Notes under the pieces: generated by a model
Databases searched by the model: none
What the model was told of the DNA's origin: nothing
Seen by the model: only the letters and a program-made list of their open reading frames with translations
Position numbers and translations under genes: made by a program
Part shown: piece by piece, positions 41,734 to 62,094 of the stretch
How the letters are laid out: every line of letters begins with the position of its first letter
Position numbering within the stretch: position 1 is the stretch's first letter
NCBI GenBank assembly: GCA_963764625.1
Contig: CAVXTH010000009.1
Span: 832,001 to 896,000, forward strand
DNA length: 64,000 nucleotides
Source: Candidatus Krumholzibacteriota bacterium
GTDB lineage: Bacteria; Krumholzibacteriota; Krumholzibacteriia; JAJRXK01
Direction: 5' to 3'

Positions 41734-41810
<77 letters not shown>

Positions 41811-46928: not shown

Positions 46929-47997
46929 TCAGCCGCTCGATCGCGCGCGAGGCGAGGCCGAAGCGGAGCGATTTCGTCTCTGCACCAGCTGACCGCAGGC
47001 TGCCGCGACCTCACCGCCAGCGCTGTCTCTCACGGTGCAAACGATTCCCGCGGCCCACAGACGATCCGCGAAGCGCTTCACTCGTTCGGCGGAAGGCCGC
47101 TTGCCGCTGAAGCCCTCGATTTCGTTGAGGGGAATCAGATTTACCTTGAACAGACCTCCGCGCGCGAGAGCGGCGAGGCGCTCGGCCGCTTCCTCGTCGT
47201 CGTTGTCGCCGGCGATGAGGACGCACTCGAGGGTGAGCTTGCGGGCCGTGCGTCGCGCGTAAGCCGCGCCTAACTCGAGGACCTCATGCATCGCCTCCAC
47301 TCCGGCCACCGGCATCAGGCGGCGCCGGGCATCGGGCGAGGCGGTGGTCAGCGAAAGAGCCAGCCCGTAGGGCCGCTCTAGCTCGTGAAGTCGACGCATT
47401 CCCTCCAGCGGTCCGCTGGTCGAGATCGTGATGTGTCTGGCGCCGATGGCCAGCCCTTTGGGATGCGAGAGGATTCGCAGGGCCTTCTTCAGATTGTCGA
47501 AATTGTCGAGCGGCTCGCCCATTCCCATGAACACCAGATTCGCCTGGCGAGAAGTGGGATGAAGTCGCGAGAGATGGATCACCTGCGCCACGATCTCTCC
47601 CGGTTGCAGTTGGCGACGCAGGCCCATGCGCGCTGTCGCGCAGAACACACAGGCCATGCGACATCCCACCTGAGTGGAGAGGCAGAACGTCCGACGGCTC
47701 GTCTCCATCGCGATGGCCACCGACTCGATTCGCTGCTGATCTCGCGAGTTCGAAGAGGTGCTTCACCGTTCCATCCGCCGCTAGCTTCTGCCCGACCTGC
47801 CGGAGGCGAGTGAATCCGTACTCGCTCTCCAGTCGACTCCTCAAGCCCAGGGGCAGGGCGCTGAGTTCTTCGATCGACTTGGCTTTTCTCTGGTAGATTC
47901 CATGCGCGAGCTGTCGGCCGCGGTAGGGAGCCTCACCCAGCGAGACGAGGAGCTCTTCCAGCTCCTGGGGGTTGAGATCGTGCAGACGAGGAGGCAT
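46929..47997 (-). CDS. rlmN: Radical-SAM RNA methyltransferase RlmN; frameshift near 47735
   Basis: 'DGTVK.LF' (ORF 47284-47997) then 'CLSTQVGCRMACVFC', 'MGMGEP', 'AACGQL' (ORF 46929-47720). Confidence 0.9.
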
Positions 47998-48073
47998 GGT
48001 GAACTCGCGAGCCTTGACAGTCTCCGGGATGCAGGATCAAGTTGCTAGCAAACTCGAGGGAGAACTTTGGAAG

Positions 48074-48460
48074 ATGGCTAAGAGTATAGAAGGAACCAAG
48101 ACCAGCGGCGAGGACGGTCTGGCCCAGCTGCTGGCCGCGGCCGGAGACGATCTCCGCCTGAGGATCCTGGAATTCGTTGCCCGCGAGCCGAAGTCCGTCT
48201 CACAGATCTGCCAGGAGCTGGAGGCGGCGCAGCCGAGGGTCTCGCACCATCTGGGGATTCTGCGCCGCTGCGGCCTCTTGTCGGTAAAGACCAAGGGACG
48301 GCAACGAGTGTATCGGTGGGCGCAGCCGGGTGGCGGCTCGGCGGCGTTCGATCTACAGACTCTCTTGCGGCGATGGTTGGGCTTGCGCGAGGGCGCCCAT
48401 GCGAGGGCCGAAAAGCCCGGCGGGGCCGAGAGTCAGCAGCTCGAAGATTTTCTTCTCTGA
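48074..48460 (+). CDS. ArsR/SmtB family transcriptional regulator
   Basis: 'RLRIL', 'SVSQI...L...QPRVSHHL..LR..GL.....GRQRVY'. Confidence 0.85.
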   Translation: MAKSIEGTKTSGEDGLAQLLAAAGDDLRLRILEFVAREPKSVSQICQELEAAQPRVSHHLGILRRCGLLSVKTKGRQRVYRWAQPGGGSAAFDLQTLLRRWLGLREGAHARAEKPGGAESQQLEDFLL

Positions 48461-48475: not shown

Positions 48476-49897
48476 ATGGATTCCAGGAAGGGACGGATCC
48501 TCATCGCGGATGACGACTCGGGACTGCGCGCGATGGTGCGGCAAGTCCTGGAATACGATGGCTTCGAAGTGGTCGAGGCCGAGGACGGTCCCCATGCGCT
48601 AAGGGAGCTGCGCAAGGGAATCTGCGAAGTCTTGTTGCTGGACGTCAAGATGCCGGGGATGGACGGCTTCGAGGTCATGAGCGCGATGCAGAGCGAAGGC
48701 CTCGATGTTCCGGTGGTGGTGATCTCCGCGCACGAGGCGGTCTCCAACGCAGTCGAAGCGATCCGGCGCGGGGCCTACGACTTCCTGGAAAAACCCTTCA
48801 AGCGGGAAGCGCTGAAGGTGCGGGTCCAGAAAGCGCAGGAGCACATGCGCCTGAAGCGGGCGAACCGGGAACTGGCCGAGTCTTCCGCCCGCGGCGGCGA
48901 GATCATCGGGGACGGCCCCTCCATTCGCCACGTGAAGGAACTGCTCGAGAAAGTCGCGCCAACTCCGGCCAGAGTTCTCATCACCGGAGAAAACGGAACC
49001 GGCAAGGAGCTCCTGGCCCGAGCGATCCACATGCGGTCCTCGCGCGCCAGTGGGCCGTTCGTGGAATTGAACTGCGCTGCGATTCCGGGCGATCTCATCG
49101 AGAGCGAACTCTTCGGTCACGAGCGCGGAGCCTTCACCGGAGCCGAACGCCGTCGGCTGGGCAAGTTCGAGAGGGCCGACCGCGGGACGATCTTCCTGGA
49201 TGAGATCGGGGACATGAGTCAGGCCGCGCAGGCGAAGGTCTTGCGCGCGTTGGAGACCTCGACCTTCGAGAGGGTCGGAGGGCAAGATCTGATCCACGTG
49301 GATGTCCGGGTGATCTCGGCCACGAATCGGGAGCTCCAGAATGAGAGCTCGGGTTTCAGGGAGGATCTGTTCTATCGACTCAACGTCATCCAGATCCACC
49401 TGCCTCCTCTGCGGGAACGCCCGGAGGACATCGAGGGTCTCTTCCTCCACTTCCTCAGGATCGCGGCACTGGAGATGGGACAGAGAGTGAAGGGGGTGGA
49501 CGATGGGGTGCTCGAGATCCTGAAGCGACAGCCGTGGCGGGGGAATATCCGTGAGTTGAGAAATCTGGCCGAGCGCCTGGCCATCGTGGCTCCGGACGAA
49601 AAGATCCACGAGGCGGATTTGAGCGTGCTGGCCGGGAGTGAGGCCACGAAAGGCGAACACGAGGACGTGTTCGCCAGCTCCACCTTCAACGAGTTCAAGG
49701 CGGCCAGCGAAGCCCTGTTTCTGCAGGGAAAGCTGCGGGAGTTCAGCTACAACGTGAGCCGAACCGCCGAGGAGCTGGAAATGCAGCGAAGCAATCTCTA
49801 TAAGAAGATCCAGCGCTACGACCTCGGACCTCCGGCTGAGCGATTTGTCCGGGGGCGCTTGACCCCGTGCACTGGAGCTACGTATTGTGTACACTAG
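48476..49897 (+). CDS. Sigma-54-dependent response regulator (REC-AAA+-HTH, NtrX/ZraR-like)
   Basis: REC 'IADDD..LLDVKMP', 'GENGTGKE', 'GAFTGA', 'FLDEI', Fis-type HTH. Confidence 0.93.
   Translation: MDSRKGRILIADDDSGLRAMVRQVLEYDGFEVVEAEDGPHALRELRKGICEVLLLDVKMPGMDGFEVMSAMQSEGLDVPVVVISAHEAVSNAVEAIRRGAYDFLEKPFKREALKVRVQKAQEHMRLKRANRELAESSARGGEIIGDGPSIRHVKELLEKVAPTPARVLITGENGTGKELLARAIHMRSSRASGPFVELNCAAIPGDLIESELFGHERGAFTGAERRRLGKFERADRGTIFLDEIGDMSQAAQAKVLRALETSTFERVGGQDLIHVDVRVISATNRELQNESSGFREDLFYRLNVIQIHLPPLRERPEDIEGLFLHFLRIAALEMGQRVKGVDDGVLEILKRQPWRGNIRELRNLAERLAIVAPDEKIHEADLSVLAGSEATKGEHEDVFASSTFNEFKAASEALFLQGKLREFSYNVSRTAEELEMQRSNLYKKIQRYDLGPPAERFVRGRLTPCTGATYCVH
49859..49888 (+). promoter_or_regulatory. 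Possible sigma-70 promoter for the peptide/activator pair
   Basis: TTGACC-N18-TATTGT about 105 nt upstream of ATG 49993. Confidence 0.35.
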
Positions 49898-50343: not shown

Positions 50344-50419
50344 GACAGTACGAGTTCGAGGAATCTCGCTTTTCTCAAAGCGGTATCTCTAGTTGAACCC
50401 TTCTCGCCCAAGGGATGCC

Positions 50420-53400
50420 ATGCAGGAGTTTCGAGAGGGAGAAGAGGGCCACGGGCCTTCCTCCTCAAGTCCAAGCAATAGCGCTGAAAATCCCGCTCTG
50501 CTGCGGACCGAGCAGGTGGGGGATCTCCACTATGACGGCGCTGCTTACTCCTCAGCCATGGAGTATTACCGTTCTGCGCTCCGCAGCGGAGCGGAGTTGA
50601 GTAACGTGCCCGCCGAATCGGTCGCACGACTGCATCGCAAACTCGCCGATTGTTTTCTCCAACAGGGACTCCCCAGCGAAGCCGCGCGCGAACTGGGCCG
50701 GGCCGAGAGGCTTCTGCCCGACTCCGCCGGTCTCGCGCATGCCGTACTGCGGGTCCGTAGGGCCCTGGTGTGCTTTCGGCAAGGCCGGTACCGCAAGGCA
50801 CAGGCACTGGCCATGGAGGGGTTCAGGGAGCTGGCGACCTCCGACCGTCACCGCGAGGTCGGAAACGCCCAGATGATTCTGGGAAACTGCGCCATGCGGC
50901 TCGGGCGCCTGGAGAAAGCCGATGAGTTCTTTCAAGACGCGCTGGCCACCTTCCGGCGCGTGGACCTCCCGCTAGGACAGGCGCAGGCGCTCATCAACCT
51001 CGCGACTCTGGCCAAGAACGAATGCCGTTGGGCCAGCGCCCTGCAGCTCTTTTCCAAGGCGGAGGCCATCGTCAGAGATCGCGGACATTCTCACGAGCTC
51101 GCGGTGTTGCACAACAGCATGGCGGTGCTCTATCGCAAGATGGGACGCCGGGCCGAGGCCATGGCTCAGGTGGAACGCGGTCTCGAGTTGGGCCGCAATC
51201 TCGGCGATCAGAGTCGACTCACGCGCCTGCGCCTCTTGAAGGGGCAGATCCTGGTGGATGAGGGTCGCTTCGCCGAGGCCGAACAGAATTTGCTCGAGGC
51301 CCGGGTCCTGGCGGAGCGGAGACAGACCGGCCGTGATCTGGCACTTGCGGACGAGTTCTTGGGCGACCTCATGGCAGCGCAAGAGCGCTTCGAAGAGGCC
51401 GAACTCAACTACCGTCTGGCCGAAAAGCGCGCCCAGGCCATGGGTCCCGCCACCGACATCCAAGCCGAGGTTCTCAGACGCCGCGCCGAACTCGCGCTTC
51501 GTCAGGGCGACTCGAGCCGGGCCCTCTCCCTGGCGAACCAGGGCATCCGCGTCGCCGAGGCCTGTGGTGAACGCTTCGAGCTACCCTTCTTCGAAAGGGT
51601 GATCGGTCTCGCGCTCGCCGGGCGCGGGGAGTATCAGCCCGCCCGCGACGCGCTCGAATCGGCTCTGGCGCGCGTGAGTGAATACCGTCTTCCGGTGCAG
51701 ATGCGGAGGATCCTGCGGGACCTGGCCCATCTACACATGCGGCAGGAGGGCCGCGAGTCGCTGCTTCTGGCTCGCACCCGGTTGCGGGAAGTGTCGGAAA
51801 TCGCCGACGAGAACAGCGAGTACTCCCCCTGCCAGGTTCAGTTGGATCTCGCGCGCGTAGAGTTGAACCTGGGCGAGTTCGATGAAGCGCTCCTCGCGCT
51901 CTATGAGCTCGAGCGACTGTCTTGCATGGGAAGTCACGATGAACTCGCGCGGGACGTCCAGGCTCTGCGATCTGAGATCGAAGACGCCCTGTCCCAGGAC
52001 GCGGAGGACATCTCCTCGCACTATCAGGCTCTGGCGGATCTGCCCGAACTTCTGGATGGCGACAAACCGGACGCCGAGCGCAACTTGAGAACCATGCTGC
52101 TGGCTTTGGCCGATCGCCTCGCGGCGGATCGCGCGTTCTTGGCGATCCAGGAGGGCGACGGCGTCCCGCGGATTCTCTCGAGTCATCATCTGCCGCGCGG
52201 ACGGGCCGCGGGCATTGCGCGCCACGTGCTTTCTCTCTTGGATGCGGCCAGTGGTCCCAGAGTGTGGACGAATCCGCAGGCGGACGCGGCGTGGAGCGGG
52301 CTCGGCGCGGAGGAATTGCGCGAGATCCAGACCGCGGCGGCCCTCTCGCTGGGACGCTCCGGTACCCTTCAGGCCCTCATGTACTTCGACTGTCAGCCTC
52401 GCAAGGGGGCCCGGCGCGGCTTCAACAACGAAGCGCTCGCGGTGGCCGCGAGCTACGTCGAGCTCCTGCGCGCTCCGATCTTCGATCTCGCGCGCGGAGG
52501 ACGGGCCGCTACGGGCAACCGCGCGTTCCTGCTGGAAGAGGCCTTCGAGAACATCATTACCGAGAGCGACGCGATGGTGGAGGTCCTTCGTCTCTGCGCG
52601 AAAGTCGCGCCGACGCCGTACTCGGTTCTCTTCACCGGAGAGACGGGAACCGGCAAGGGCCTCTTGGCCTACGCGGTTCATCGCTTCAGCCCGCGCGGAC
52701 AGAAGCGCTTCGTCTCCTTGAACTGCGCGGCCATGCCGGAGAGCTTGCTCGAGAGCGAGCTGTTCGGACACGTGAAGGGCGCATTCACTGGAGCCAACCG
52801 GACCCACAAAGGGCTCATCCCGGGCGCCGACGGAGGTACGCTCTTCCTGGACGAGATCGGGAAGATGAGCTTGCCCATGCAAGCGAAGCTCCTGCATTTC
52901 CTCGACAGCAAGGAAGTGCGACCAGTCGGGGGCGGGGAGAGCCAGATCGTCGACGTGCGCGTGCTCAGCGCCAGCATGCGCGATCTGAAAGAGATGGTCC
53001 GGCAGGAACTCTTCCTGGAAGATCTCTACTATCGTCTTCTCGATTTCCCCATCGACGTGCCCCCGCTACGCGATCGCGCGGATGACATCCTCCTTTTGGC
53101 GCGGCATTACCTCGACCGCGTCTGTGGTGAGTTGGGCCGCCCGATTCCCCAGATGACGCGTGGGTTCGCGAGTGGCCTGAGGTCGTACTCGTGGCCGGGA
53201 AACGTTCGAGAGCTGGAGAAGGTGATTCGGCGCGCGGTCATTTTGAGCGTGGGCGAGGATCGCTTGCAGGCTAAGGATCTCCCCGACTCCTGCCGGGGCA
53301 AGCTCGCCGCCGAGGGAGAGGACCAGCCGGTCAATCCCATCCAGCCTCTGAAGGACGAAGTCGCCGAGTTCGAGAAAGTGCTGCTGGAGAGAGCACTCAC

Positions 53401-53503
53401 CAGTTGCGGGTGGAATCGCAGTGAGGCGGCGCGACGCTTGAAAATCAGCTATCCCACCATGCTGCAGAAGATCAAGCGCTACGGTCTGAGTATTCCCAAC
53501 TAG
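50420..53503 (+). CDS. Sigma-54 enhancer-binding protein, TPR-GAF-AAA+-HTH
   Basis: Long N-terminal TPR-like helical region, GAF-like segment, 'GETGTGKG', 'ESELFGHVKGAFTGA', 'FLDEI', 'WPGNVREL', Fis HTH. Confidence 0.92.
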   Translation: MQEFREGEEGHGPSSSSPSNSAENPALLRTEQVGDLHYDGAAYSSAMEYYRSALRSGAELSNVPAESVARLHRKLADCFLQQGLPSEAARELGRAERLLPDSAGLAHAVLRVRRALVCFRQGRYRKAQALAMEGFRELATSDRHREVGNAQMILGNCAMRLGRLEKADEFFQDALATFRRVDLPLGQAQALINLATLAKNECRWASALQLFSKAEAIVRDRGHSHELAVLHNSMAVLYRKMGRRAEAMAQVERGLELGRNLGDQSRLTRLRLLKGQILVDEGRFAEAEQNLLEARVLAERRQTGRDLALADEFLGDLMAAQERFEEAELNYRLAEKRAQAMGPATDIQAEVLRRRAELALRQGDSSRALSLANQGIRVAEACGERFELPFFERVIGLALAGRGEYQPARDALESALARVSEYRLPVQMRRILRDLAHLHMRQEGRESLLLARTRLREVSEIADENSEYSPCQVQLDLARVELNLGEFDEALLALYELERLSCMGSHDELARDVQALRSEIEDALSQDAEDISSHYQALADLPELLDGDKPDAERNLRTMLLALADRLAADRAFLAIQEGDGVPRILSSHHLPRGRAAGIARHVLSLLDAASGPRVWTNPQADAAWSGLGAEELREIQTAAALSLGRSGTLQALMYFDCQPRKGARRGFNNEALAVAASYVELLRAPIFDLARGGRAATGNRAFLLEEAFENIITESDAMVEVLRLCAKVAPTPYSVLFTGETGTGKGLLAYAVHRFSPRGQKRFVSLNCAAMPESLLESELFGHVKGAFTGANRTHKGLIPGADGGTLFLDEIGKMSLPMQAKLLHFLDSKEVRPVGGGESQIVDVRVLSASMRDLKEMVRQELFLEDLYYRLLDFPIDVPPLRDRADDILLLARHYLDRVCGELGRPIPQMTRGFASGLRSYSWPGNVRELEKVIRRAVILSVGEDRLQAKDLPDSCRGKLAAEGEDQPVNPIQPLKDEVAEFEKVLLERALTSCGWNRSEAARRLKISYPTMLQKIKRYGLSIPN

Positions 53504-53515
53504 CCTCGCCCTGAC

Positions 53516-53591
53516 CCATCAATTCTCTTGATAGGCGTTAAGTCCACTGTTCATAGGGCCTTGGTTCCAAGGCTCTTCTCCATCCTATCAA
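53516..53591. promoter_or_regulatory. Candidate upstream activator (enhancer) sites
   Basis: Dyad ATCAA-N5-TTGAT(AGG) at 53518-53535 and a matching half-site CCTATCAA at 53584-53591. Confidence 0.45.
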
Positions 53592-53704
53592 AGAACTTTC
53601 CAACCGAATCCCCGGGCGCGAGGCACCGCGATCCGAGCTGCGGACAGAGCTTGCAACTCATTGAATTCCAATGAGATAGGAATGCCGCTGCACGGCGGAC
53701 TCGC

Positions 53705-53720
53705 TGGCACGGGGACTGCA
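53705..53720 (+). promoter_or_regulatory. Sigma-54 -24/-12 promoter P1
   Basis: TGGCACGGGGACTGCA (GG-N10-GC); IHF-like CAACTCATTGAAT at 53654-53666. Confidence 0.8.
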
Positions 53721-53730
53721 ATGGGGAATG

Positions 53731-54115
53731 GTGGCTGGAGTCACTTAGGCAATCGTGGTCCGGTCGTCCAGTTGGCCCTTGGGGCCGCAAAGCTATCGGA
53801 GGACGGGGTGGGAACGCTCCTCTCCGTCAACCGGCTGAAAGAGGTTGTTTTCCATCAATTCGGTCCGTCGGTTCGTCAGCACGAGGTGGGGTCGGGCTGA
53901 GGATTTCGGCGGAAGCTAGGAAGACAGCGCTTTCACACCGTCCTCCGAAACATCCCATGGGATGCAGTGAGAGAGGTCAAGGAGAGATCCGACACGAGAC
54001 TCCCCGGCATCCAGGACTGGCGAGATCCTGGAGCGGCCAATCAGGGGAATGGTCTGGTGAACCACTCACCGAGATCCTATGGTTGCGAGAGCCGTCCCTG
54101 TGGGACGGCTCTCGT
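53731..54115 (+). ncRNA. Candidate sigma-54-dependent structured ncRNA
   Basis: No credible ORF; 23-bp long-range stem 53796-53818/53926-53948; small hairpins; perfect 13-bp closing hairpin 54086-54114. Confidence 0.55.
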
Positions 54116-54354
54116 GCGTCCGGTCCCCACCTCGCGCCGACACCGCAAGCCCTCGGGTTGCGAGCTACCGCCAGCCCCTGAGTGTCTCCTCCCGGAGACG
54201 ATTCTATGTCCCGATGGCGACAACTTCCGCCCCGCAGTCTCCTGGTCTTCATCCTTTCGGAGGGGGGGGGCGGCGTGATTGAGGATTTGAAACCATTGAA
54301 CAACAAGGGCTTATGAGCCTATCCGGGGTTGCAGCCGAGCCGACTCAGAGGCGG

Positions 54355-54370
54355 TGGCATGGCGGCTGCG
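54355..54370 (+). promoter_or_regulatory. Sigma-54 -24/-12 promoter P2
   Basis: TGGCATGGCGGCTGCG (GG-N10-GC); IHF-like CAACAAGGGCTTA at 54301-54313; 55 nt before ATG 54425. Confidence 0.65.
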
Positions 54371-54424
54371 AGGCATGGGGCAAGGGACGGGGATGCGGAG
54401 GGCCTTCGGACGAAGGAGAGAGCC

Positions 54425-55363
54425 ATGAACAGAGCCAGCAACAGACAGTCTCGAGCCCGCCGGTGGCCGCTTTCGAGCGCGGTTCTGGTGCTCTCGCTCG
54501 CGCTCTTGGGCCTCCTCTTCGCGGGATGCGACGAGAACGACGATCTGGTGGACGTCACGCCTCCGGCCATTCCCAACGGGGTGAGTTCGATCACCGGGGA
54601 TTCGGTACTGTGGGTGATCTGGAACGCCAACCGCGAGCCCGATCTGGCCGGTTACCGGGTCTACTCCACCACCCAAGTCGACGGGAATTACGATCCGGTG
54701 AACTGGCAGCTGCTGCTCGAGGTGGGCAGCCCGTTTCCGGACATCCCCAACCTGGTCAGCTACGAACCCAATGCGAACGAGGGAAAGCCCTATCTGGTCT
54801 TCGAGGATCACACCGTCGACAACGGCTATGACTACTATTACGCGATCAGCGCCTTCGACGACGCGGGCAACGAGAGCGCTCTCTCCACCGACTACGTGGT
54901 GGACACTCCGCGGCCGGAGGGCGAGATCACCCTCAGCGCGGCCAGCGTGGATTCCTCGCGCGCCGGATTCGACTTCAGCGAGGAGACGAGACGGTATCCG
55001 GCCGACGTGTTCAGCGATTGCAGCTTCGATATCGTCAACGGAATCCCTCTCTTCACGGCCCAGGCCCCCTGGGTGAGGATGCAGGATTATGGGGACGTGG
55101 ACTTCGACACCGCCAGCTGGGCTCCCGAGTTCGGCTGGTCACAGGCCGGCGTGATGGAGGCGATCGAAGGTCACAGCTACTTCTTCGAGATCGTAGATGG
55201 GCAGCAGCTCAACTACGCCAAGGTTTTCGTGGAGACCATTTCGCAAAACAACGGCACGATTAAATTGATGTGGGGCTACCAGCCCGTCGAGGGTCTACCC
55301 GAGCTCAAGCGGCCTCAGGCGGCTCTTCCGCCGCGAGGTTCAGGGAAGGAGAGCTCACAATGA
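54425..55363 (+). CDS. Lipoprotein with FN3-like domain
   Basis: Lipobox LFAGC; 'DVTPPAIP.G', 'W..N.EPDLAGYRVY', 'YYYAISAFD..GNES'. Confidence 0.82.
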   Translation: MNRASNRQSRARRWPLSSAVLVLSLALLGLLFAGCDENDDLVDVTPPAIPNGVSSITGDSVLWVIWNANREPDLAGYRVYSTTQVDGNYDPVNWQLLLEVGSPFPDIPNLVSYEPNANEGKPYLVFEDHTVDNGYDYYYAISAFDDAGNESALSTDYVVDTPRPEGEITLSAASVDSSRAGFDFSEETRRYPADVFSDCSFDIVNGIPLFTAQAPWVRMQDYGDVDFDTASWAPEFGWSQAGVMEAIEGHSYFFEIVDGQQLNYAKVFVETISQNNGTIKLMWGYQPVEGLPELKRPQAALPPRGSGKESSQ

Positions 55364-57511: not shown

Positions 57512-60500
57512 ATGACCTTCAGCCGCGGGTCTTGGGCCGCTCTGGCGCTCCTCACCCTCCTCCAGCTTCCGCTCTCTCCCGAGGTGGCGGCAAGCACCGA
57601 AACCAGGCCGTGGTTTCAATCCTCATCCCCGGCTTCCGCGATAGCCACGCGTCAGCTTCTCGCACGGGCCTCTCGCCCCATGCGCTTCAGCGGCGCCAAG
57701 CTGAGTCAGATCGACGCCTTCCAGTCGCACAAAGCGCCCGCCCTACTACGCATGCTCGTAGTGGGGTGCGACTTCTCCGACAGTCTGCTCTGGGGGCGTG
57801 ACCGCTCGCAGTTCGTCGGTTGGCCGGCTCCCGCCCGCCAGGGAAACTTCCTGTTCAACGACGAAGGAAAGGCGATCACCGACGCACAGGGGAATCCCAT
57901 CTACGAATTCGCCGCGCACGATTCCACCTACTTCGACCTCCAGATGCGCAAGACGGCGGACTACTTCACGACCGTCTCGCAAGGGACGTTCGACTTGCAG
58001 TGGCAGGCCCTGTCGACGCTGGTGAACCTGCCCGAGCCGATGGGTTACTACGGCGCCGACCAGGACAACAACGATCGGTTGGTGGAGATGGCCAAGGCGG
58101 TCGTGGAGGCGGTCGATTCCGAAGTGGATTTCAGCAGCTTCGACACCCTCGTACTCGTCCACGCCGGGGCGGGACGCGAGACGGATATCAACAACGACAG
58201 CCCCCAACAGCTCTTCTCGAACTATCTCGACCGTCGTGATTTCGAACAGGCCATGGCGGACACCGTATTGTCCGAGCCGGGAATCCCCACTCAAGACGGC
58301 GTGTTGATCCGCCACGTTCTCATTCTGCCTGAGTCGGAAACCCAGGACCCGGTCGTCTCCCTGGGTCTCAACGGTTTCTTCGGGATGCGTGGGGTCTATT
58401 GCTTCGAGGTGGGTCTGCGACTGGGGATGCTCAGCCTGGCCGATTTCACTCCCTCGGGCCGTCCCGACAGCCAGGGCATCGGGAACTACGGCCTGATGGG
58501 GTATGGGCTGTTCACCGGCTTGGGGATCGTGCCGGCCGAGCCGTGCGCCATGAATCGCATGCTCATGGGTTGGGTGGATGCGGTCGAGATCGACTCGGAC
58601 AGCGCGCGTCGAATTGCCTCCCATCGAAACCGGAGTGGGCGACACGCTTCTGGTCAAGGTGCCCATCACCGACCGCGAGTATTTCCTCCTCGAGTATCGC
58701 CTGCAGGATCCCGACGGGAGCTTCACCTTCACTTTCGACGACCTCAACGGAAATCGGGTGCCCGATTTCTACGACGCGGACAGCGACAGTCGATCGGAAT
58801 TTTCTCAATGGACAGCCGAGCTCGACCTTCGATCCCGCCACCGACACCTGGGAGAGCACCCAGGGGGCGGAGTGGGATTTCTTCATGAGCGAGTTTCCGG
58901 TGGAGGACTCGGATGGTCCGGGTAGGGGACCGGGGCGGGGCAACGGACTCTACGTGTGGCACATCGACGAGCGGGTCATTCTGGAATCGTCTACTCGCCG
59001 GCACGAACGACATCAACTCCGATCCCCATCGGAAGGGAGTCGATCTCGAAGAGGCGGATGGAGTCCAGGATCTCGACACTCTCAAGGCCTCTCGCTTTCT
59101 CTTGGGATGGGATCGCGACTGTTTTCGTGGGGAGGGAGTGCTGATCGGAGATGAGCTCTTCGGCACTCGCTTCGCGGACGACACGCTTCCCAACGCCCTG
59201 AGCGCCGACGGCGCCTCGATCGGGTTCTCCATCAGCGAAATCGACAGCGTGCAGTTGGGGGTCGAAGGCTGCGCCGTGGGACCTGACTGTCCTTTGGGCG
59301 GACGCTTTACCTGTACCGCGATCGCCTGGGCTTCACTCTCGGCTTCGCCCGGCCCTGCACGCTCCGGGGGTAACCCTCGCCGCGGCACAAAAGCTCGACG
59401 CGGACGGACCTCGCTACGAGGTGCGTCTGGCCGACCTCGACGGAGACGGGCGGCCCGAGATCCTGCTCGCCGGCGATCAGGGTGCGCTGCTCGCCTTCCA
59501 CGGCGATCTCACTCCCTGGCAGGCCGGGGCCGATCCTCAAAACCCTACGTGCTCGCGCGCGCCATGGGGCAAGACGGCCCCCCGCAGTGGCTGGGGGCCC
59601 CCGTGATCGGAGACCTGGATGGCAATGGCACTCCGGAGATCTTTCTCAGTGCGCGCGACGGGGTCTACGCGTTCGATCCCCAGGGGAATGAACTGCGGGA
59701 TGGCGACGCGAATCCCTCGACTCTCGGTCTGTTCTTGCTCCCGCCCGCACTCGACGCCGAGCCCACCGAGCTCTCCCACCCCTGCCTTCTCGCTCCTCAC
59801 GACGGTGACCTCGCGGTCTTCTCCCCGGTCGCGCGTGCGGACCTGGTCGTGATCGCGCGCGGCAAGCAGGAGGGGGCCAAGGTGGGCGCGAGTCTGGTGG
59901 AATGGGACGGCGTGAGCCAGCCCACCGTGCTCACCTCCTCGGACCGCTCGGACGGGACGGCACGCCGTGGCGTCCTGAGCCAAGGATCCACCGGGGCACT
60001 CTATCTGTCGGTGGGTGGGGGGATCCCGCAGAACTTCTCGGGGCGGATCCTGCTGCGCCCCCCCGCAAAAGCGGCCAAGGCAGCGTTCACTCCTCCGCCC
60101 CCGCCGATCGTGGAGACGCCTTCGGTGCTCTTGAGCATTCGTCTCCGCGGCGACGGGATCTACGATCTGGTGATGGTCGACACCCTGGGAGTCCCCCGAG
60201 TGCCGCTGGCGACGCACGGAAGCTCACTTCCCTCTCCCTGGTCGGCTCTGGTGGGAGGGCCGGAGCGGCAGAACGGCGCTCCTGTCCTGGCGCTGGCGGC
60301 GGGGGATGCGCTCTGGCTCCTGGACCGGAATCTCTCACAAAGGTCCGACGGCCCCTACCGGCCATCCTATTCCACCGCGCAACTGCAGGGCGGAGTTCCC
60401 GCCGCTCCTCTCCTGGTGGATCTCGATGGCGACGGGACGGTGGAGGCGATCTGGCACGATCGGGTCGGGCGGGTGCACGCGGTCGACCTGAACTCCCGGA

Positions 60501-61069
60501 GTCTGCCCGGATGGCCGTGGCAGGGTCCCGGCGAACCCTCGGGGTCGCCCGCGGTGGGCGATGTGAACGGCGATGGCAGCCTCGAGCTCGTTCTGGCGTC
60601 CGGATTCGACGCTCTTTTGGGGACGGACGCGGATGAGCGACTTCCGCTCACTCGGCGCATCGGTGAGCTGCGGGTGTATGCACTCCAGATTCCGAGCACG
60701 CGTTTCGCTCCCTGGACTCAGGGAGGCGCCAACGCCTGGGGCACGGGCCATCAGGCTCTCGCTTCGAGCGCCAGCGCGGCCGTCTCCGGCGGCGAGGCGT
60801 TCAGCAACGGGGATCTCTTCGTCTATCCCAATCCAGTAGATGGTCCTAAGGTCCATCTGCGCGTCCGGCTGAGTCGTACGGCCCTGGTGAGTTCGAGCAT
60901 TTTCGATCTCCAGGGACAGGTCGTCCGGCAGACCGGAATCATCCGCGGCGAAGGACCCGGCCAGTTGGAGTTCGAGTTTTCAGTGACCGGTCTCGCGGCC
61001 GGTCTGTATGTGGCCAAAGTGGAAACGGAGGGCAGCGTGGCCCTCAAGCCCTTTGCTCTCGTGCGATGA
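57512..61069 (+). CDS. Immune-inhibitor-A (M6)-like domain + FG-GAP repeats + T9SS-type C-terminal domain; several frameshifts
   Basis: 'DFSSFD...VHAGAG.E', 'GIG.YGLMG.G', 'EYFLLEYR', 'GLYVWHIDE', 'DLEEADG', 'DLDGDG' repeats, 'YPNP...IFDLQG..V...LAAGLY'. Confidence 0.78.
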
Positions 61070-61161
61070 GCTGGTGGACTTTGCCAAGGTCCGCGCGAGA
61101 GCTGTATACTCAATGCTCGAATCCGTGCCGCGCAATCGGCCTGAACGGTTGGGAGAGCTTC

Positions 61162-62094
61162 ATGCGCAATTCCTCGTGTATCGCCCTCGCGGCGCTTTTC
61201 ATTTTCCTGGCGAGCGTGCCTCCCTCGTGGGCAGGGAATCCAGGAGATGCCGGCTTTCTGTCCTTGAGGATGGGAATCGGCGCGCGCAACGGCGCGATGG
61301 GCGACGTTGGGGTGGCCGAATCGACCGGCGCCACCGCGATGTACTACAACCCGGCCAATCTCGTGTACACCTCAGGTACGGACGTCACTCTCCAGCACGT
61401 CGAGCACTTCAGCCTCTTTCGCCAGGAGGCGGCCGCGATCAGCCACCGGCTGCCCCGGGGCGCCGTAGGGCTCATCTTCAGCGGCTTTTACGTAAATGAT
61501 GCCATCCCCTTGACCACTCTGGATCGCATCGGGGTTTCCCAGGGCGATTTCCAACCCTACCAGCTCGCGGTGGGTCTGGGTTACGCCTACCAGTTCCACG
61601 ATTTCTCGCTGGGATTGGTGGGAAAGTTCCTCTACGAGCGCATCGAGTCCTACGGCGCGGCGGGCCTGGCGCTCGACTTCGGGATCAGCCATCGCAGCAA
61701 GATTCCAGGTCTCACCCTGGCCGCCGCGGTCGCCAATCTCGGCGGCCAGATGACGGTGAAAGAGGAGCCCTACGATCTTCCGTTCACCACGCGTCTGGGG
61801 GCCAGCTATACCCCCCACACCGAAGGGAAGGGACTCGCCCAGAACCTCACCCTGGCCACTGACCTGGTCCTGCCCAACGACGGAAACGGGCGGCTCCACG
61901 TGGGAGGAGAACTCCGCCTCCATTCCAGTTTCGCGGTGCGGGCCGGATATCGCTTCAACTACGATACCTACGGGCTCACCGCCGGCTTGGGCTTTCACAC
62001 GGGGAATTTGACGGTGGACTACGCGTTCATGGACAACGGAAACGAGCTCTCGGACGACCACCGCATCTCGCTGTCCTTCGCGTTCTTGCCGTAG
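61162..62094 (+). CDS. PorV/PorQ family outer-membrane beta-barrel
   Basis: 'FL.L..GAR..AMG', 'A.YYNPA', 'LP.T.RLG', 'R.GY', 'G.G.....DYA', 'HRISL'. Confidence 0.85.
   Translation: MRNSSCIALAALFIFLASVPPSWAGNPGDAGFLSLRMGIGARNGAMGDVGVAESTGATAMYYNPANLVYTSGTDVTLQHVEHFSLFRQEAAAISHRLPRGAVGLIFSGFYVNDAIPLTTLDRIGVSQGDFQPYQLAVGLGYAYQFHDFSLGLVGKFLYERIESYGAAGLALDFGISHRSKIPGLTLAAAVANLGGQMTVKEEPYDLPFTTRLGASYTPHTEGKGLAQNLTLATDLVLPNDGNGRLHVGGELRLHSSFAVRAGYRFNYDTYGLTAGLGFHTGNLTVDYAFMDNGNELSDDHRISLSFAFLP

Follow-up and report, generated by a model that had tools for sequence, protein, structure and literature searches.

What does a complete sigma-54 promoter transcribe when no protein-coding gene directly follows it? 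The question is raised by a locus within 64,000 nucleotides (nt) of a Candidatus Krumholzibacteriota bacterium (assembly GCA_963764625.1, contig CAVXTH010000009.1, positions 832,001 to 896,000), hereafter called the window, in which such a promoter stands behind a sigma-54 activator gene and ahead of a predicted lipoprotein gene. An earlier inspection of the letters of this DNA (the sequence-only reading) had proposed a regulatory RNA of about 390 nt as the product. The candidate is upheld by our analysis, as the region is non-coding and structured, lies between the promoter and a terminator hairpin, and is covered in its interior by contigs from RNA libraries. We conclude, with a probability of about 0.9, that it is a conserved, sigma-54-driven gene whose product is a structured non-coding RNA about 385 nt long. 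The RNA matches no Rfam family and represents an undescribed RNA family of Krumholzibacteriota, which resembles the Qrr, GlmY and Pxr kind of RNA and is a member of none of these families.

The sigma-54 promoter and its upstream sites

Four features precede the RNA:

53516-53535: upstream palindrome 1a, CCATCAA-N5-TTGATAGG, candidate enhancer site
53584-53605: upstream palindrome 1b, CCTATCAAAGAACTTTCCAACC, second candidate enhancer site, from the alignment of 12 loci
53654-53666, minus strand: candidate site for integration host factor (IHF-like site), CAACTCATTGAAT
53705-53720, plus strand: sigma-54 promoter P1, TGGCAC-N5-CTGCA (TGGCACGGGGACTGCA), match to the -24/-12 pattern

The strict sigma-54 pattern has one match in the 64-kb window against 0.16 expected, and at least one match was obtained in 15 of 100 shuffles; a looser pattern adds a second site at 54355. 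Among the first nine homologous loci, eight carry the strict -24/-12 pattern at the position of P1 and the ninth has a CGGCAT variant. The promoter was also recognized by pattern in 20 of 21 further loci, so that 29 of 30 homologous loci bear it, the CGGCAT variant included. Additionally, when the segment 53500-54420 was used as a BLAST query, the matches opened at query base 205-206 (window position 53704-53705), exactly at P1. The genome encodes rpoN, and transcription is predicted to start near 53731.

Both upstream palindromes are AT-rich and the motif CTATCAAA-N4/5-TTTGATAG occurs twice. Palindrome 1a has its core dyad ATCAA-N5-TTGAT at 53518-53532; the consensus is kept at the same place in 12 aligned loci and was seen in other families too. 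Palindrome 1b lies about 65 nt downstream of 1a, with the half-site CCTATCAA at 53584-53591. Concerning the IHF-like site, a block of the form AA.T.ATTG...A is conserved in the 12 loci, and the reverse complement of CAACTCATTGAAT fits WATCAANNNNTTR, which we take to be the IHF consensus, at 8 of 9 specified positions. The dyad, half-site, IHF-like site and promoter that the sequence-only reading had combined into a sigma-54 architecture are all found where it had placed them, and they are conserved in relatives.

Fold and covariation of the RNA

The nine sampled families of the class Krumholzibacteriia are designated f1 to f9 and the genome of the window belongs to f1. The following elements were located in the RNA, all on the plus strand:

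about 53731-54120: non-coding RNA of about 385 nt, both ends predicted
53748-53772: 5' conserved block GGCAAUCGUGGUCCGGUCGUCCAGU, invariant columns, specific to f1
53774-53785: small hairpin P2, GGCC-CUUG-GGGC, with compensatory changes
53796-53948: central domain, closed by the long stem P3/P3b
53796-53806 paired with 53938-53948: helix P3, 11 perfect base pairs, then G-U pairs
53810-53817 paired with 53927-53934: helix P3b
53819-53844: hairpin P3a, CCUCUCCGUC / GGCUGAAAGAGG, with the invariant tip ACCGGC
within the central domain: helix P5, from the consensus fold
53876-53900: hairpin P6, invariant 7-nt loop GGUGGGG at 53885-53891, 8 of 9 pairs covarying
54009-54033: hairpin P7, CCAGGA/TCCTGG, invariant loop CUGGCGAGA at 54017-54025
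54086-54114: terminator hairpin CGAGAGCCGUCC-CUGUG-GGACGGCUCUCG, covarying GC stem

The RNA thus comprises at least seven helices in three domains, a central three-way domain being accompanied by separate 5' and 3' hairpins. The 390-nt stretch folds at -183.1 kcal/mol (z=-3.85) on the plus strand and at -161.8 kcal/mol (z=-4.28) on the minus strand, and none of 100 shuffles was as good on either strand. Since both strands beat their shuffles, energy alone cannot pick the strand.

Comparison of homologues is more informative about pairs and strand. RNAalifold predicted 86 pairs for 9 sequences, 38 of them compensatory, and 66 pairs for 12 sequences, 33 of them compensatory (alignment A2, with near-duplicates of genomes G002 and G003 left out). 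A covariance model of the central domain, named R1 and covering 153 positions, was used to align 33 sequences. In this alignment 91.8% of the cells are paired, against 36.7-49.2% when the partners are slid; sliding likewise lowers the covariation score, from 0.561 to about 0.09-0.13. Covariation across the homologous loci is strong, with 33 of the 39 pairs changed on both sides, and 0 of 500 shuffles reach any of five measures. Independent MAFFT/RNAalifold runs agree with the R1 result. There are 145 G-U cells and only 20 A-C cells; this excess of G-U identifies the plus strand as the RNA. Together with the compensatory stems, it bears out the earlier view that the G-U-tolerant pairing of this region reflects structure at the RNA level.

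Specifically, all 11 pairs of the first helix of the central domain show double-sided change among the 33 sequences, with 93.9% of the cells paired. The long stem 53796-53818/53926-53948, which had been noticed before, was found with its 11 perfect base pairs and G-U continuation and is conserved with compensatory changes. All 8 pairs of P7 change on both sides in 12 sequences. CCAGGA/TCCTGG and the 54086-54114 stem, both already listed by the sequence-only reading, are present and covary in relatives, whereas the CATCCC/GGGATG hairpin that it had placed at 53951-53964 has to be given up as a conserved element: it is confined to the window and to G002 and G003, its closest relatives, and is absent from the other alignment rows. 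For the 5' block of f1, both a local hairpin and a long-range CCGG/CYGG pairing are predicted, neither with clear compensatory change.

The P6 loop motif AGGUGGGGUC is present in loci of f1, f2, f4, f5, f7, f8 and f9, while the P7 loop is invariant in f1, f2, f4, f7, f9 and part of f8. At the 3' end, distant f1 genera and the metagenome homologues show 4-7 T behind the terminator hairpin. The f2 version has P7 and a small hairpin enclosed in a closing stem, (A)AAGAGCC/GGCTCTT(T), with a T-run behind it; 14 of the 18 pairs of this 3' domain (P7 and closing stems) are compensatory in 22 sequences.

No reading frame is conserved among the 33 homologues: at best, a frame is open in 17 of them, and one homologue has no complete open reading frame (ORF) longer than 3 aa, so the earlier statement that the region encodes no protein stands.

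Signal in metatranscriptomes

Three salt-marsh metatranscriptome runs gave one contig each, of 236, 227 and 303 nt, which span 53751-53986, 53750-53976 and 53748-54050, respectively, with an identity of 95-99% or better. These contigs are confined to the interior of the predicted transcript, and the flanking genes have none; one contig from a DNA run of that habitat extends across 53400-54350. The pattern is what a discrete, relatively abundant RNA would give.

Several observations speak against the RNA gene as described and are gathered here. The assembled RNA contigs carry neither strand nor level and do not reach either predicted end, all three runs come from one habitat and year and may be one campaign, and by the search tool's own rating such a contig pattern is a weak hint. 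Parts of the DNA that the RNA runs leave uncovered do not count as evidence of absence. Fitting the 33 sequences to R1 biases their alignment in favour of the structure. Finally, in the genus of the window the terminator tail reads GUGCGUCC (also given as GTGCGTCC) and has no U-run, and termination may be inefficient there.

Distribution in the Krumholzibacteriia

A BLAST search with 53500-54420 against 41 related genomes matched nine, including the window's own, all of them in f1. BLAST across the class gave no match outside f1, and covariance models were needed to go further. R1 found one full-length match per genome in 9 of 9 genomes of f1 and 28 of 43 of f2, and none in 98 genomes of the seven other families; a phylum-level sample gave the same picture. 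With the filters switched off, R1 matched three of three supposedly negative f2 loci over the full length (E-values from 2.8e-7 to 7.7e-4), and in f5 and f8 it matched the P6 hairpin only.

A second covariance model, R2, represents the 3' domain of the wider family. It matched 27 of 35 genomes in f4, 6 of 7 in f7, 2 of 13 in f8, 1 of 1 in f9 and 6 of 43 in f2, with no match in f1, f3, f5 or f6. By our reading, a homologue of p312, the predicted lipoprotein gene that follows the RNA in the window, lies a few hundred nt downstream of 29 of the 36 best R2 hits and has the same orientation; for the remaining seven, the hit is on another contig or the genome has no listed p312 match. The models therefore place the RNA superfamily in at least six of the nine families, and inspection adds f5. 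P6 and P7 are the sole elements common to the whole superfamily, and the central domain of f1 and f2 was not detected in f4, f5, f7, f8 or f9.

Of twelve loci taken from R1-negative genomes, L214 runs into the end of its contig and was left out; among the other 11, nine have the order TPR activator, spacer, p312, the TPR activator being the gene that also precedes the RNA in the window. The spacers measure 0.84-1.24 kb in eight loci and 2.1 kb in L220, which bears an insertion. Tandem sigma-54 promoters were recognized by pattern in six of these nine loci. The exact AGGTGGGGTC hairpin was found in 8 of 9 spacers, and L220 and L221 read UGUGGGGU there. The spacers of f4, f7, f8 and f9 additionally contain a GGAATGGCGAGATCC hairpin inside a closing stem, with an extra hairpin (loop AUGGACAUCCCCUCCGG) and a T-run. 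The f3 and f6 loci have p312-like genes with other neighbours and none of the hallmarks of the RNA. Concerning f5, the RNA (L216, L224) is devoid of P7. Between the first promoter and P6, these two loci also show a 5' hairpin GGAAGUCAUCCCGUGCGUAAAUGAACUUCC, which occurs in f8 as well, and a second GGUGGGG motif.

In three genomes, a second and lower-scoring copy of the 3' domain was observed on another contig, with R2 scores of 49-65 bits (G078:C39:4412-4523, G038:C49:4218-4327 and G050:C33:33696-33808). A fourth extra match, G142:C256:832-931, reached only 24.4 bits (E-value 0.006). These additional copies may be paralogous RNAs. Simple pattern scans were less specific: CGGTCGTCC-N98-126-AGGTGGGGT run over the genome contigs returned 119 stretches, only two of them real by nhmmer, and the scan of metagenomes returned 31 stretches, five of which are real homologues and three new in sequence.

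Two activators, a second promoter and the p312 operon

The RNA belongs to a neighbourhood with the following further features:

48476-49897, plus strand: response-regulator-type sigma-54 activator with REC, AAA+ and HTH_8 domains (Pfam)
50420-53503, plus strand: TPR activator with TPR / MalT-like TPR, Sigma54_activat, AAA_lid and HTH_8 domains (Pfam)
54183-54200 and 54207-54222: GC-type palindromes TGTCTCC-N4-GGAGACG and TGTC-N8-GACA, candidate enhancer for the second promoter
54290-54313: second IHF-like AT-rich block, conserved AA..ATTG......CAA....TTR
54355-54370, plus strand: second sigma-54 promoter (promoter P2, distinct from hairpin P2), TGGCAT-N5-CTGCG, looser pattern
54425-55363, plus strand: p312, predicted lipoprotein of 312 aa, first gene after the second promoter

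The ORF of the TPR activator is open from a TTG at 50393, and the ATG at 50420 is the probable true start. An orthologue of the response-regulator activator lies directly upstream of the TPR activator in five of five loci from four families. The TPR activator orthologue ends about 200-300 nt before the RNA promoter in all loci examined; it is upstream of the RNA in 21 of 21 further loci, with p312 downstream in 20 of 21, the remaining locus being cut. No histidine kinase was recognized near the two activator genes. Further upstream, a radical-SAM protein (46929-47720, minus strand) has a homologue at the same place in five of five related loci, and an ArsR-type HTH protein (47972-48460, plus strand) has one in two of five.

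In all nine of the first loci the second promoter follows P1 by 620-690 nt; in all 21 further loci its distance from the start of the central domain is 417-741 nt. Promoter, palindromes and IHF-like block together form a second complete sigma-54 architecture that is kept across the class. Between the terminator and this promoter, a palindrome TGTCCyC-N4-6-GrGGACA is kept in all families looked at, a motif that differs from the AT-rich one ahead of P1. Two motifs and two activators suggest, as far as sequence can tell, that each activator serves one promoter. The sequence-only reading had taken the RNA for the output of the adjacent activator; with two activator genes and two promoters with different palindromes in the module, either activator may drive the RNA.

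Locus L220 (genome G074, f2) holds about 1.2 kb of extra DNA with an opposite-strand ORF between the terminator and the second promoter (oriented positions about 1530-2720), flanked by inverted GTCCCTG...CAGGGAC-like ends. A similar opposite-strand coding sequence follows the terminator directly in the metagenome locus L152, which has no second promoter within the locus. The extra DNA in both may be an insertion element that landed beside the terminator.

Of the 151 genomes of the class, 138 have a homologue of p312, and p312-like proteins also occur in the neighbouring phyla Gemmatimonadota, Zixibacteria and Latescibacterota. No family for it was found in Pfam or NCBIfam, and an Atlas look-up gave only "hypothetical" entries and weak fn3-like leads. 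It is followed by a DUF4384 protein, two ORFs that match parts of a type IX secretion system (T9SS)-dependent, M6-like inactivated metalloprotease model (one with Por_Secre_tail) and a PorV/PorQ-family protein, encoded at 61066-62094. The two ORFs, at 57512-58888 and 58913-61069, match the N-terminal part (positions 75-328) and the C-terminal part (838-1027), respectively, of this NCBIfam profile of 1043 positions. They may be pieces of one split gene, or two genes that share domains.

Proposed action of the RNA and a feedback lead

The arrangement can be put together as follows. One of the two neighbouring activators would bind the AT-rich palindromes and, helped by DNA bending, the bound activator would open P1, so that switching on this activator would lead to synthesis of the RNA. 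The transcript would then act in trans through its invariant apical loops ACCGGC, GGUGGGG and UGGCGAGA. As a best explanation of the whole, trans action included, this is a scheme that we moderately favour.

One possible target lies within the module itself:

50398-50422, plus strand: leader of the TPR-activator mRNA; CUCGCC at 50403-50408, in the loop of a CCCUU/AAGGG hairpin or next to it, and the Shine-Dalgarno (SD)-like AAGGGA at 50410-50415

The exact complement of the P7 loop, TCTCGCC, is found at 50402-50408, just 5' of the SD-like AAGGGA and the ATG at 50420. CUCGCC occurs 15-22 nt before the activator ATG in 37 of 37 genomes of f1 and f2, while the flanking leader varies, and the longer UCUCGCC occurs in 18 of the 37. 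Minimum-free-energy folds of the 37 leaders pair the SD in 25 cases and leave the motif mostly unpaired in 22. The three f4 genomes inspected all place UUCGCC in a hairpin loop, about 31-33 nt ahead of the ATG. The mean duplex z of the P7 loop against the activator leader is -1.46 (n=27, genome G003 left out of the set), compared to -0.19 (n=26) for the P6 loop and -0.10 for the P3a loop against the same leader. With the p312 leader, the z values of all three invariant loops scatter around 0 in 31 loci. A role of the P6 loop GGUGGGG as an SD mimic that pairs with the C-rich strand of the leader hairpin was also considered and is not supported, the mean duplex z being the above -0.19 (n=26).

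On this basis the GGCGAG(A) loop might form a kissing contact with CUCGCC at or next to the loop of the leader hairpin, in which the ribosome-binding site of the TPR activator would be sequestered. Such kissing would close a feedback loop on activator translation, which it could raise or lower, similar to that of Qrr and luxO. We regard this feedback as a lead, of a kind that would turn out right perhaps once in every three or four cases.

Several points weaken the lead. The P7 loop and the leader motif are both invariant, and there is consequently no covariation between the partners. The duplex has only 6-7 base pairs, with 0-2 extra pairs among 19 genomes, and within f1 its energy is no better than that of shuffled leaders (z from about -0.8 to 0). 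The leader motif is missing in the genomes inspected from f7 (0 of 1), f9 (0 of 1), f8 (0 of 2) and f5 (0 of 1). In f8, the RNA of genome G028 keeps a GGCGAGA loop without the leader motif, and G055 has neither. Furthermore, the first match to the leader came from a comparison of eight gene starts with four motifs, for which the chance, estimated post hoc, is a few percent and not lower, and Hfq was not found in the 96%-complete genome. The f5 activator leader reads CUCGAGGGAA where f1 and f2 read CUCGCCNRGGGA.

A wider version of the scheme would make the RNA a class-wide, long modular riboregulator in a two-activator circuit, in which GGCGAG sets translation of the TPR activator while GGUGGGG and ACCGGC reach further targets or a protein partner. 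This version is put forward tentatively, and we doubt that it will hold in full.

Alternative explanations

A known housekeeping RNA would suit the size of a few hundred nt and the strong predicted folding, and the sequence-only reading had itself offered a 6S-like rod as the alternative. The rod does not survive comparison: the fold is multi-branched, without the rod and central bubble of 6S RNA, there is no match to RF00013, and a canonical 6S RNA is encoded elsewhere in the genome (G000:C6:723021-723200, 55.7 bits with a cut-off of 46.4), as are RNase P RNA (301 bits) and tmRNA (158 bits). At the gathering score, Rfam has no match in the window besides one tRNA (gene at 41737-41810, minus strand). 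At E-values up to 10, the segment 53400-54500 gave two chance-level hits only (E-values 1.6 and 5.9), and nothing was found in 12 homologous loci, so that no known family is matched, 6S and Csr/Rsm included. A Csr/Rsm-type sponge is further disfavoured because a search of the window's genome (96.4% complete) found no CsrA (PF02599), and because the conserved loops are ACCGGC, GGUGGGG and UGGCGAGA and not GGA motifs. The restriction of the RNA to part of one class also argues against a housekeeping function, and we give this group of explanations almost no weight. Nearly as improbable is a small protein, or a mere spacer of regulatory DNA that has no functional transcript. Several homologues do allow ORFs of 30-86 aa and the flanks are indeed regulatory DNA sites, but the frames are not kept, as described above, and the indels within conserved blocks are not multiples of three. 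Substitutions in the region keep base pairs, with an excess of G-U over A-C cells that is a signature at the RNA and not the DNA level, and contigs from RNA libraries cover it.

Two other explanations accept the transcript and differ in how it would work. P1 could be a second promoter of the p312 operon and the RNA a cis-acting leader, riboswitch-like or an attenuator, in which the terminator decides on read-through. The RNA is always directly upstream of the operon and on the same strand, the terminator stem belongs to the conserved fold, the weak U-run in the window's genus makes read-through conceivable, and terminated leaders also accumulate as short RNAs. We nevertheless consider a leader quite improbable, because a separate conserved promoter with its own palindromes and IHF-like site precedes the operon wherever both were sought, the 250-600 nt after the terminator are otherwise unconserved, and the terminator is canonical, with 5-7 U, in most lineages. 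Furthermore, the carriers across the class share no single core fold as a ligand-binding aptamer would, and the insertion of about 1.2 kb in L220 parts the RNA from the second promoter with neither lost. Alternatively, the invariant loops may be recognition sites for a protein, for example a module-encoded protein or the activator itself, and the RNA a scaffold in a ribonucleoprotein or a sequestering decoy that does not work by base pairing. Three loops of 4-9 nt are invariant across families in which most of the other sequence has been replaced, and hairpins are gained and lost as modules (f5 is without P7; f4, f7 and f9 have the extra hairpin with loop AUGGACAUCCCCUCCGG). The absence of Hfq from the genome as searched, the closing stem of the 3' domain, whose sequence conservation (AAGAGCC/GGCUCUU) is unusual for a plain terminator, and the shortness of the loop-mRNA complementarity, which fails in three families, point the same way. 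On the other side, CsrA as the classical partner of a sponge was not found in the 96%-complete genome and the loops are not GGA motifs, while the exact loop complement in the activator leader of 37 of 37 genomes is more simply read as RNA-RNA pairing. A protein-binding role of this kind seems unlikely to us, and a trans-acting RNA made under activator control is the explanation that we retain.

Significance of the locus

To our knowledge, Krumholzibacteriota have no cultured member and are represented only by metagenome-assembled genomes. Our search of the literature on Krumholzibacteriota in combination with non-coding RNA or sigma-54 returned no prior description among the papers listed. For an uncultured lineage, the combination of promoter, terminator, covariation, synteny and metatranscriptome signal is a rare level of support. 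The locus offers a defined regulatory module of two activators, two promoters with different enhancer motifs and one RNA. If the wider version of the scheme is true, RNA would gate, besides proteins, a conserved operon linked to the envelope and to type IX secretion. In practical terms, the two covariance models R1 and R2 can be used for annotating Krumholzibacteriia genomes, and a complete sigma-54 architecture without an ORF can flag genes for non-coding RNAs.

Comparison with known systems

Sigma-54-dependent RNAs encoded beside their activator are known from a few proteobacterial systems, namely Qrr, GlmY and Pxr. Regarding riboswitches, the second promoter sits between the RNA and p312 and the carriers have no one ligand-binding core. 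RNAIII of Staphylococcus aureus is a long regulatory RNA with many hairpins whose apical loops contact mRNAs; its C-rich loops target SD sequences, it encodes a peptide and it is not sigma-54 dependent. The RNA described here is likewise several hundred nt long with many hairpins, and its conserved apical loops are proposed to make contacts near the ribosome-binding sites of targets. There is no homology with RNAIII, however, and the loops of this RNA are G-rich or mixed. GlmY/GlmZ of the Enterobacteriaceae, with GlrR, depend on sigma-54 and a response-regulator activator and have upstream activator sites and an IHF site. No Rfam match to them was obtained here; the present RNA differs from them in size, fold and host, and no counterpart of the GlmY decoy mechanism was identified.

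The Qrr RNAs of the LuxO system in Vibrio are small, multi-copy and Hfq-dependent. The likeness to them lies in the dependence on sigma-54 and an enhancer-binding activator, whereas this RNA mostly occurs as one copy per genome, in a genome where no Hfq was found, and is three to four times longer. The mRNA of luxO, which encodes the activator of the Qrr RNAs, is itself a pairing target of these RNAs (PMC3262071). The same feedback logic is proposed for GGCGAG and CUCGCC, where the pairing would proceed through a hairpin loop.

Pxr of Myxococcus xanthus and other myxobacteria is the closest known arrangement: an RNA behind an activator gene, with a sigma-54 promoter and several stem-loops. The Pxr gene lies directly downstream of the sigma-54 activator gene nla19 and in the same orientation, with a predicted sigma-54 promoter in the spacer of about 260 nt, and some of its stem-loops are conserved while others are variable (PMC5568312, PMC5684412). 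Pxr is an RNA of 108 nt with three stem-loops, compared to about 385 nt and at least seven helices here. The two RNAs have no similarity in sequence or at the level of Rfam and belong to different phyla. Compared with Pxr, the module of Krumholzibacteriia adds a second activator and a second sigma-54 promoter with a different palindrome.

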